Below the pieces are notes generated by a model. The model was not told the DNA's origin, ran no database searches, and was given only the letters and a program-made list of their open reading frames with translations. From Raillietiella orientalis (lineage: Eukaryota), in assembly GCA_036172245.1 (NCBI GenBank), contig JAYWIR010000030.1, forward strand, positions 248,001 through 312,000: a stretch of 64,000 nt of DNA, given 5' to 3'. The position numbers and the translations under genes are program-made. Below are positions 27,101-30,100 of the stretch, in pieces (the stretch's first letter is position 1; each line of letters opens with the position of its first letter).

Positions 27101-30100
27101 GAAGTCAATGCCCTCTGAACAGGAATGTTTTCCACATTTGCATGTGCTTTGCTCCCTGATTCGTATAAACCGAGTTCATAGTCCCCATTGCACTGTCTTT
27201 TTTATGATGAAACAATAGGAATAAGCGAACCATTTCTTCATACCTTAACTCTTCAGAGGAAGCCAACTGGGAATCAGAAAGAGGTTTTACAACAGTCCTT
27301 TTTAAAAGAACCAAGGGTGCACCCATCAATGGCTGCCAATCACCAGAAGACTGAGTCACCCCTATTACATCTCCTCTTCTCCTCAGACCAGACCGAACTC
27401 TACGATCTGAAAATCCTTGAAATATTTCTTCTAAAAACTACTTCCATTACCTGAAGTTCTTCTTTGCCGAGTTGTTCTGCCAGGCTGGCTTGATGCACCA
27501 GAAACTAGTGGACTAACAATAGCTCTTTCTTGAGCTAATCTTTCAATCATTTCATCCAACACTGAATGTCGGGTAAATGCTGGATCATCTCCTATCGATA
27601 AATCCACCACTTGTTGTTCTCCATTTTCTTCAAACACAACATTTGGCACTAGCTGTTCATCACGGCATTTTTCTCGCCCTGGTACTAGACGCTGATAACT
27701 TGGTGGATAAGGATTCCCATCGATATCAACTAGAAATGGGGGGGGCATTAAGTGAGGTGCTAATTGAGTTTGCTCATCTAGAACATGATGATTAGCATCC
27801 CGGATGAGAGGTCGATAATCTGTATGGAAGAATAATTCAGGAGGAATCTAAACAGACATTACTAAACTGGCAAAACCACTAATACACTGGCCATACTTTG
27901 TTATATGCATAATCTGAACCTAAACCAAGCAGACAAACATGACCATGAGAGTCAGTAGCAACTAGCTTTGTTCCATCTGGACACCATTTGACATCAAAAA
28001 TGGCACCATGTCCTTGTCCCTCAATTGGATTGTTGTATACATAGACAGTCTTCCCTCGCTGCAGATCCCATAACATAAGTTTCCCATCATGTCCTGCACT
28101 AGCTAGGATCCTATCATCACACGTATGTGGCTCAAGAACATAAATTTCATCAGTGTGTCCCAGCAAAACTTTCAGCAAACGGCCTATGGCATGGAAAGTA
28201 AGAACGTGCACAACAAACAGTATTTTACCTGTTGAAGAATCCCAAACTTTTATGGAGCTGTCACTAACAGCGGTTATTACAGTTTGATCACATAAGTCCC
28301 ATGATACCATAGTAACTTTTAACTTCATCTTGCTGTCACTCTCATCAACTTCCATGTCACCCCTATAATGAAACACTTAAAAATTCAAGTGCAACTTTGG
28401 CAATGGCTCCACCCATCTCAAAAAGCTCAGTTGGTGATGCATGCAATTACATCATTTAAAATCAAGTTTTGTGGTGAAAATATATCATCATGACATTCAT
28501 CCAATGTTTTCCACTTGAAAGCAAAACTCACTTGCTATTTAATCTAGTTATCATCTGGAGTCGTATATACTTCCAGGTATGCATAGTGTAATGCCAAATT
28601 AAAGCTGTACCATCTTTGGAACCGGAAATAAACCTCAATCCTTTATGACACCACTGTATAGAATCTACACGATCTGCATGAGCTTCACTTTCCAAGATGC
28701 GGGAAGGACCACATTTCTGTGTATTGTGAGGCATCAAATACACTCTGAGCACATAATACAACCCTGTTAGACTCGTTCTGTACATACCTCACGTTGTGAT
28801 CAGCACTTCCAGTAGCAAGAAACATTCCTCCTGGACTGAAGGAGGCACAAATTATACTGGCTTGTCCTGGACGCATTTTCTCATGAAACTTTTCTGGATG
28901 AGGACTGTAATGAAATGACACAACAATAAGAATACACCTGTTTGACCACAAACTCATAACTAACTTGAATATTTGTCTTTTTGCACAGTAAGTCCAAAAG
29001 GCCACCACACCATCAGAACTAGTACTTATGAGATACTGATCTCTCATAAAAACTGAAGGGCAAAACTGAAGTCCTGTGATCATCCCAGAATGTCCAGATA
29101 GAACAGCTACTGGAGCAGTGGTTTTGAGACACCATATTCGGATGATCTTGTCACAAGAACCAGCAGCAAGCAATTGGTTGTCATAACTAACAGCAATATC
29201 TGAGATTTCAGCAGCAGCACCCCTCAAAGTTGCTACTAAGCGTCCATCATGGACATTCCATACTTTCACCAAAAGATCATCAGCTCCCTAGTTGATATCA
29301 AAGTATCCAAATCAGCTGATTAATGCATACTTTGTGGAGAAATCGTACCGTGATTACATATTTCCCTGATTGATCAAAAAGAGCACAATATACAGCAGAG
29401 AGATGACCAATTGTTTTCTTCAACAAACAGAAATGACTGTACAAAGACTGTGGTCTTATCTGGCGAAGTGACATAGATCCCACCAGCTCTCTTCCAAAGA
29501 ACACAGAGGCTATCCAAATGTGACCAATAGAACCTTTTCTTTTCATTAGGGCTACTTACGCCAACTTCCAAAAGAGGCTTCCAAGGGAGGTTTCCCATGA
29601 TATCTTACAGCATCTTTCCAACTGCATTTGTGTTCTGTTTGGGAGTCTAATTTTTAAAGATATTAATGTATTATTTTATAAAATACACAAGACCGTGAAA
29701 TTGTGTGCATGTGTTTTTAAAATCGGAATCCTTTCGGTTTTTTGAAAAATCGGAAAAATCGCAATTTTGTAAATTGCATTTCTCAAAACAACTTCCATGA
29801 TACACATTCAGAGAAAAAGCCCTGGAATCACCCTAATTTTATTTACTCTGCAATACTCTGAACACGCACACCGAATTTAATTACGCACAAATTCACTTTA
29901 AATTCACTGAATTAAATAAACGCACATTCAACGGAAGCTGACACATATAAAAGCAAGCATTACAAAAGCACCAAATGATAATGCATTACGTGCAGTATAT
30001 TGGGAAGAACTGAAGAAATAATTGAATAGGAACAAAAAAACACACTTAATTTTAGCACAGAGAGCCAAGACCTTAAGTGAAATGTAATAAGAAGCCCATC

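Follow-up and report, generated by a model that had tools for sequence, protein, structure and literature searches.

A very probable SNORD33/snR55-type box C/D small nucleolar RNA in an intron of a BRWD/PHIP-family gene of Raillietiella orientalis

In the 18S ribosomal RNA (rRNA) of yeast, Um1269 is assigned to the small nucleolar RNA (snoRNA) snR55 and Gm1271 to snR40, according to the table in PMC5699541, and position 1326 of human 18S rRNA is assigned to SNORD33 in statements of PMC4914119 and PMC6466398. The human snoRNA sits in RPL13A together with SNORD32 and SNORD35A, as stated in PMC6466398. The SNORD33 clan was traced to the last eukaryotic common ancestor by Hoeppner and Poole, in whose account (PMC3511168) the locations of intronic snoRNAs are unstable over long times. 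Here an element of this type is described from a stretch of 64,000 nucleotides (nt) of Raillietiella orientalis (assembly GCA_036172245.1, contig JAYWIR010000030.1, positions 248,001 to 312,000), referred to below as the window. The element lies within a BRWD/PHIP-family gene, in one of its introns, and is very probably a real box C/D snoRNA of the SNORD33/snR55 type. Judged by its boxes and guide, it is also very probably the counterpart, about 75-80 nt long, of yeast snR55, human SNORD33 (U33) and plant Z195.

For snR55 of Saccharomyces cerevisiae, the supplement of van Nues et al. 2011 (PMC3116282) gives a guide of 12 bases identical to those of the window RNA, located one base before CUGA and annotated for S1269. 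The supplement also annotates the sequence CCACAA, close behind the C box, as a pairing partner of 18S positions 1264-1259 (UUGUGG) immediately 5' of the guide duplex, and in the main text snR55 is one of 11 yeast snoRNAs for which a complementarity that flanks the methylation site is listed. With this identity of guide and spacing, the window RNA would select the same nucleotide as snR55. On the evidence presented below the element is highly likely to function as a snoRNA that is released from the BRWD intron after splicing and that guides the uridine methylation of snR55/SNORD33, with accessory pairing of CACCACAA(AA) to neighbouring 18S bases.

The element and its host intron

Inspection of the sequence combined with the Rfam alignment revealed, read on the minus strand, a C box, a D'-like box, a C' box, a guide and a D box. 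The features are as follows, with positions numbered from the first nucleotide of the window.

28421-28498, minus strand: predicted box C/D snoRNA, about 78 nt with the terminal stem (RF00133 alignment)
28493-28498, minus strand: 5' half of the terminal stem, GAAUGU (Rfam alignment, partner 28421-28426)
28491-28485, minus strand: C box, AUGAUGA (sequence and Rfam alignment)
28484-28466, minus strand: first spacer of 19 nt, UAUAUUUUCACCACAAAAC, from C to D' (sequence)
28467-28476, minus strand: CACCACAAAA, part of the first spacer, proposed as an accessory element that would pair with 18S rRNA immediately 5' of the methylation site
28465-28462, minus strand: D'-like box, UUGA, degenerate (matched to the D' region in the alignment with RF00133)
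28454-28449, minus strand: C' box, UGAUGU, one mismatch relative to UGAUGA (sequence and Rfam alignment)
28432-28443, minus strand: D guide, CAUGCAUCACCA, 12 nt, complementary to 18S UGGUGGUGCAUG with one G-U pair
28431, minus strand: single base A between guide and D box (sequence)
28430-28427, minus strand: D box, CUGA (sequence and Rfam alignment)
28421-28426, minus strand: 3' half of the terminal stem, GCUUUU (Rfam alignment)

An RUGAUGA-type C box near the 5' end and a CUGA D box near the 3' end are the general hallmarks of a box C/D snoRNA, and both are present. The spacers of 19 and 18 nt, the second ending in the guide, and the D'-C' linker of 7 nt are as expected of C/D snoRNAs, those with two motifs usually having spacers of nearly equal length and a short linker between D' and C'. 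With the preceding C the D'-like box reads CUUGA and is hence non-canonical when compared with CUGA. Five of the six positions of the terminal stem, the part that joins the C and D boxes in this class of RNA, are paired in the Rfam alignment, including two G-U pairs, and the remaining position is a U-U mismatch. The four boxes and the 12-nt guide one base before CUGA, which had been recognized in the initial annotation of this DNA, were all located on the minus strand at 28421-28498.

The Rfam scan was performed at the curated gathering thresholds and then with reporting by E-value, for a local region of 221 nt and for the whole window, the latter on both strands with 4227 families. The best family was RF00133 (SNORD33/Z195/SNORD32), aligned from end to end (model positions 1-85 of 85) with a score of 34.3 bits and E-values of 9.1e-5 in the local region and 0.026 window-wide. 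The runner-up, snR47, scored 21.6 bits. The family expected from the initial annotation was therefore recovered as the best by more than 12 bits, and no match was obtained at the curated threshold; RF00133 is indicated by rank and by end-to-end alignment and not by the gathering threshold of 44 bits. A default Rfam scan misses the gene because 34.3 bits fall short of that cut-off. Window-wide, no other C/D family scored better than E 0.69, and the window contained no SNORD34-like neighbour at an E-value of 1 or better.

C and D boxes at snoRNA spacing were found 10 times in the window, compared with 5.2 expected, and six of 100 shuffles reached 10; such a pair alone is not unusual. The combination of C box, guide and D box was found once in the window and in none of the 100 shuffles. 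The whole intron folded with a minimum free energy of -34.9 kcal/mol (z = -0.11), nothing beyond the shuffles. Also recorded were sub-threshold matches in the window at 3399-3472 and 6610-6774, to mir-466/mir-297 with 39.3 and 37.9 bits (cut-offs 85 and 90) and to mir-H1 on both strands with 38.3 and 35.1 bits (cut-off 97). In view of dinucleotide-repeat runs in the translations of nearby open reading frames (ORFs), these microRNA-like matches are probably simple repeats or palindromes and not microRNA genes.

The exons and the intron that surround the element were mapped as follows.

28531-28363, minus strand: host intron of the BRWD/PHIP-family gene, 169 nt, GT..AG (GTGAGT...TATAG) (exon mapping)
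28532-28744, minus strand: upstream host exon, WD40 region (reading frame continuous with the adjoining exons)
28229-28362, minus strand: downstream host exon, WD40 region (reading frame continuous with the adjoining exons)

The five mapped neighbour introns measure 61, 60, 43, 45 and 49 nt, and splicing out all six introns produced a single open frame of about 560 codons. The snoRNA is oriented along the sense strand of the host and occupies the sole enlarged intron among those mapped, with 33 nt between its 5' end and the 5' splice site and 58 nt between its 3' end and the 3' splice site. In vertebrates, intronic C/D small nucleolar ribonucleoproteins (snoRNPs) assemble with an optimum about 50 nt upstream of the branch point, as stated in a review (PMC8162545), and the 58-nt distance to the 3' splice site is compatible with that optimum.

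The domain PF25313 (BRWD_AD) matched one host exon with 101.1 bits (cut-off 40), and WD40 matched two host exons with 53.3 and 43 bits (cut-off 27). A protein search with one host exon of 138 amino acids returned 1580 of 2067 candidates at E 0.001 or better; the named relatives among the matches listed were mostly BRWD3, PHIP and BRWD1 of arthropods and vertebrates, and the best identities were 56-68% across most of the exon. The WD40 repeats and BRWD_AD, combined with the names of these relatives, identify the host as a member of the BRWD/PHIP family by sequence similarity. Both the host and the contrast between the 169-nt intron and its short neighbours (43-61 nt) are consequently as initially annotated.

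The top match to the BRWD exon, with 364 bits, was a sturgeon-assembly protein flagged as unverified contamination; this score exceeds expectation for a single match of 138 amino acids and probably reflects several matching stretches in that protein. A block of about 14 kb (window 8000-22000) that follows closely on the 3' end of the BRWD gene has 57-71% G+C, as compared with 34-47% in the BRWD gene and about 30% at the far end of the window. This G+C content leaves many frames of the block open, and ORFs of 300-540 codons, several in all, occur on both strands.

The 18S target and the first spacer

The guide forms 12 pairs, one of them G-U, with the 18S sequence UGGUGGUGCAUG, a guide of this kind requiring at least 10 nt of antisense next to box D. 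The target 12-mer is upper-case, denoting conservation, in the RF01960 consensus of the eukaryotic small-subunit rRNA, in which five bases slightly upstream are variable; this consensus was viewed through two IMG/VR contigs that carry 18S pieces. Complementarity to a conserved 18S stretch, as asserted at the outset, is supported by this result. 18S rRNA was not found within the window. The two contigs, L127 and L130 of the viral collection, match RF01960 with 534.5 and 82.7 bits and are probably misassigned or chimeric records.

The methylated base faces the fifth guide base upstream of box D, according to the review cited above (PMC8162545), and would here be the uridine at the fourth base of UGGUGGUGCAUG, corresponding to yeast U1269. 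The guide register is the same in the RF00133 consensus and in snR55. The initial annotation had named the U1269/U1326 site, and this agrees both with the register of the snR55 guide annotated for S1269 and with the assignment of human 18S-1326 to SNORD33 in the papers cited; the equivalence of yeast 1269 and human 1326 is taken from those assignments and not from an alignment of the two numberings. A SNORD32-type reading, with the G two bases downstream as the target, was considered and rejected, the register fitting snR55 and the RF00133 consensus and not a shift by two. A literature search for Me18S-U1356, a Drosophila name, gave no match.

The life cycle proposed for the RNA follows the general pathway of intronic C/D snoRNAs. 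It would be transcribed within the BRWD/PHIP pre-mRNA, and a kink-turn made by the C and D boxes would attract the core snoRNP proteins, among them the methyltransferase fibrillarin; box C/D snoRNAs are in general stable small RNAs bound by fibrillarin, Nop56, Nop58 and Snu13. Once the intron had been spliced out and debranched, exonucleases would digest it as far as the protected RNA. The guide before the D box would then pair with the conserved 18S 12-mer and the uridine opposite its fifth base would be 2'-O-methylated, while CACCACAAAA would probably add an accessory pairing beside the guide duplex and not guide a second methylation.

The evidence for this accessory role is the 8-mer CACCACAA at 28476-28469 of the first spacer, followed by AA, which is identical to an 8-mer of S. 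cerevisiae snR55 and is independent of the features on which the initial annotation was based. That annotation had suggested an orphan second guide in the segment before D'. Because CACCACAA matches the accessory-pairing region of snR55, the spacer is better explained as an accessory element of the kind described for snR55 than as an orphan guide. Thus, CACCACAAAA probably pairs in addition with the 18S bases that immediately precede the guide duplex on its 5' side, and accessory pairing is the best available explanation of the first spacer as judged from the sequence. It predicts an 18S rRNA with UUGUGG, possibly UUUUGUGG, ending one base before GUGGUGGUGCAUG.

Environmental relatives and host turnover

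Metagenome contigs were scanned with an exact pattern consisting of the C box, a gap of 35-60 nt, the guide written with Y at two of its positions, a single base of any kind and lastly the D box, and at least 120 stretches were found. After dropping matches less than 10 nt from a locus end and keeping the innermost of nested C boxes, 111 distinct sequences remained, from which reduction by 6-mer overlap produced 79 representatives; all counts in this section apply among the matches listed. The C box, guide and D box agree by construction in this set because the pattern came from the candidate and the Rfam consensus. A scan to which the window's own first-spacer motif had been added returned 0 stretches.

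At least four contiguous terminal-stem pairs were present in 41 of the 111 sequences, compared with a random expectation of 5.7%, and two or fewer, as in the window element, in 58. In the first spacers of the 79 representatives, CACC was found 21 times and CCAC 18 times, each against 5.5 expected. CCAY was found in 31 of the 79, usually starting 6-9 nt past the C box; the shuffle mean was 12.6 and none of 1000 shuffles reached 31. In the second spacers CCAC was not enriched (5 against 3.5), and the excess of CCAY was weaker (15 against 7.9, with 9 of 1000 shuffles reaching 15). The accessory-pairing motif of yeast snR55 therefore seems to be present also in an animal and in many eukaryotes sampled from the environment, a recurrence that supports the view that the extra 18S contact is old.

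Twenty environmental loci carrying the pattern were scanned with RF00133. Ten passed the cut-off with 44.6-57.5 bits, two scored 39.6-43.7 bits, one of them a six-copy tandem array, and eight had no match at E 0.01, three of these eight being located beside snR61-family snoRNAs. The scores below the cut-off suggest that the curated value misses a good part of apparently real genes. The tandem array (L075:1-2019) comprises six copies of a 61-nt SNORD33-type pattern with a period of about 168 nt, each copy scoring 40.2-43.7 bits on RF00133, just under the cut-off. The three loci beside snR61-family snoRNAs (L004, L048 and L011) are of SNORD33 type without reaching E 0.01 on RF00133; the snR61-family matches (78.2, 67.6 and 47 bits) are within a few hundred bases, and the arrangement looks like a conserved fungal-type cluster outside the reach of the RF00133 model.

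The genomic context of the environmental loci varies. L026 and L037, besides L008, have SNORD34-like neighbours, and other loci adjoin snR61-type, or Z196- and U31b-type, snoRNAs. A tblastn search with eight BRWD exon peptides at E 1e-3 found no BRWD coding sequence near the 119 loci among the matches listed, flanks of up to 2 kb being available for only 80 of the 119 while the rest may hold less. The BRWD host is not shared with any of these loci. The initial annotation had proposed a relocation, which is correct in that the host is other than RPL13A; it is not evidence of a notable move, considering the instability of intronic positions described in PMC3511168 and the several contexts seen among the environmental loci. 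A different host is to be expected and is not remarkable because turnover of hosts is the documented norm among snoRNAs. The host of an ancient snoRNA again differs from RPL13A, in line with the published turnover.

Alternative explanations and comparison with described snoRNAs

Several results weigh against a working snoRNA with accessory pairing. The Rfam scan gave no match at the gathering threshold, the 34.3 bits on RF00133 being below the curated 44. The terminal stem has no more than 2 contiguous pairs in our own count and is thus weak, which is no worse than in 58 of the 111 environmental relatives among the matches listed, and D' is the degenerate UUGA. The environmental set was picked with a pattern derived from the candidate and the Rfam consensus. 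The accessory pairing presumes that the 18S rRNA has UUGUGG as in yeast, and the Rfam consensus is variable at that stretch. Finally, when the best duplex of each first spacer with a heterologous 18S piece was computed, it adjoined the target for 10 of the 79 representatives compared with 8-17 in five shuffles, showing no enrichment, in a test that is insensitive because the piece came from an unrelated eukaryote with a different flank.

The weak stem, the degenerate D' and the sub-threshold score would also be expected if the element were a decaying or silent copy, left by duplication or retroposition, with the working gene elsewhere in the genome. A relic of this kind is nevertheless decidedly improbable: the C box, the D box, all 12 guide bases and the accessory 8-mer are intact and the placement in a sense-strand intron is typical. 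Moreover, weak stems are common, with two or fewer contiguous pairs in the 58 environmental relatives already mentioned, and 8 of the 20 environmental loci scanned, including the three beside snR61-family snoRNAs, likewise miss E 0.01 on RF00133. The signature of a retroposed copy was considered separately and discarded, no A-tract or poly(A) tract following the element. It could also be argued that short motifs have come together by chance in an AT-rich intron that yields no RNA product, given that 10 pairs of C and D boxes at snoRNA spacing occur in the window where 5.2 are expected and that the intron folds no better than its shuffles (z = -0.11). Chance is extremely hard to reconcile, however, with the absence of the combined pattern from all 100 shuffles and the window-wide Rfam E-value of 0.026, and neither an independent 8-mer common to snR55 nor an enlarged intron would be expected from it.

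A further alternative retains a functional snoRNA and concerns the first spacer, which could be a genuine second methylation guide. Its target in 18S would face A28470, the fifth base before UUGA, and would correspond, if the pairing follows the snR55 scheme, to yeast U1260, placing two sites nine bases apart. The order of CCACAAAA, C and UUGA in the spacer puts the pairing directly upstream of D', in a guide register unlike that of yeast snR55, and the C'/D' motif of snR55 placed beside an artificial guide supported methylation roughly as well as a consensus motif did in an experiment of PMC3116282. The duplex would nonetheless have at most 8 bp and need U at two 18S positions that are variable in Rfam, as compared with the usual guide length of 10-21 nt stated in PMC8162545, and D' is non-canonical. 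In addition, 18S positions 1269 and 1271 appear in the yeast table of PMC5699541 and 1260 does not, and the same element in snR55 is described as accessory pairing in PMC3116282. A second guide is accordingly unlikely, and there is only a slim prospect that the accessory element has shifted into guide register before the D'-like box, in which case the RNA may methylate a second, so far undescribed, 18S uridine nine bases 5'. If true, that state would be a snapshot of accessory pairing becoming a new methylation guide, or the reverse.

The preferred explanation, a working snoRNA with an accessory 18S pairing, has value for annotation in accounting for the one intron that is three times longer than its neighbours in a gene of short introns. 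Overall, the element would be an ordinary snoRNA of a known type, unsurprising to the specialist.

The RNA can be compared with several known or environmental systems. Nearly the same guide stands before the D box in the consensus of sn1502 (RF01189) and of Tetrahymena TtnuCD21 (RF02297), which presumably guide the same 18S site in other lineages; the window RNA scores only 16.2 bits (cut-off 60) and 19.5 bits (cut-off 70) on these families, with no similarity beyond the boxes and the guide. The environmental locus L008 and its duplicates, which have an RPL13A-like host, share the pattern of C box, guide and D box and a first spacer containing CCAC, and score 44.7-45.1 bits on RF00133. They differ in that two copies and a SNORD34-like RNA are located between exons matching Ribosomal_L13 (21.6, 18.0 and 34.3 bits, of which only the third passes the cut-off of 23.8). 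With human SNORD33 and RF00133 the window RNA has in common the best-scoring family, a full-length alignment and the guide register, whereas its host is a BRWD/PHIP-family gene and not RPL13A and its score is below the 44-bit cut-off.

With yeast snR55 the identity extends over the whole 12-nt guide CAUGCAUCACCA, one base before CUGA, and over the 8-mer CACCACAA downstream of the C box, and the C'/D' motif is divergent in snR55 too, as described in PMC3116282. Guide and D box are separated by A in the window RNA and by U in yeast. The accessory element lies 8 nt from the C box and stands directly before D' in the window RNA, whereas in snR55 its distance from the C box is about 5 nt and D' is far away. 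The window RNA is intronic in a protein-coding gene, whereas yeast snR55 belongs to a polycistronic snoRNA cluster, an arrangement that fits the snR61-family neighbours of the environmental loci L004, L048 and L011.

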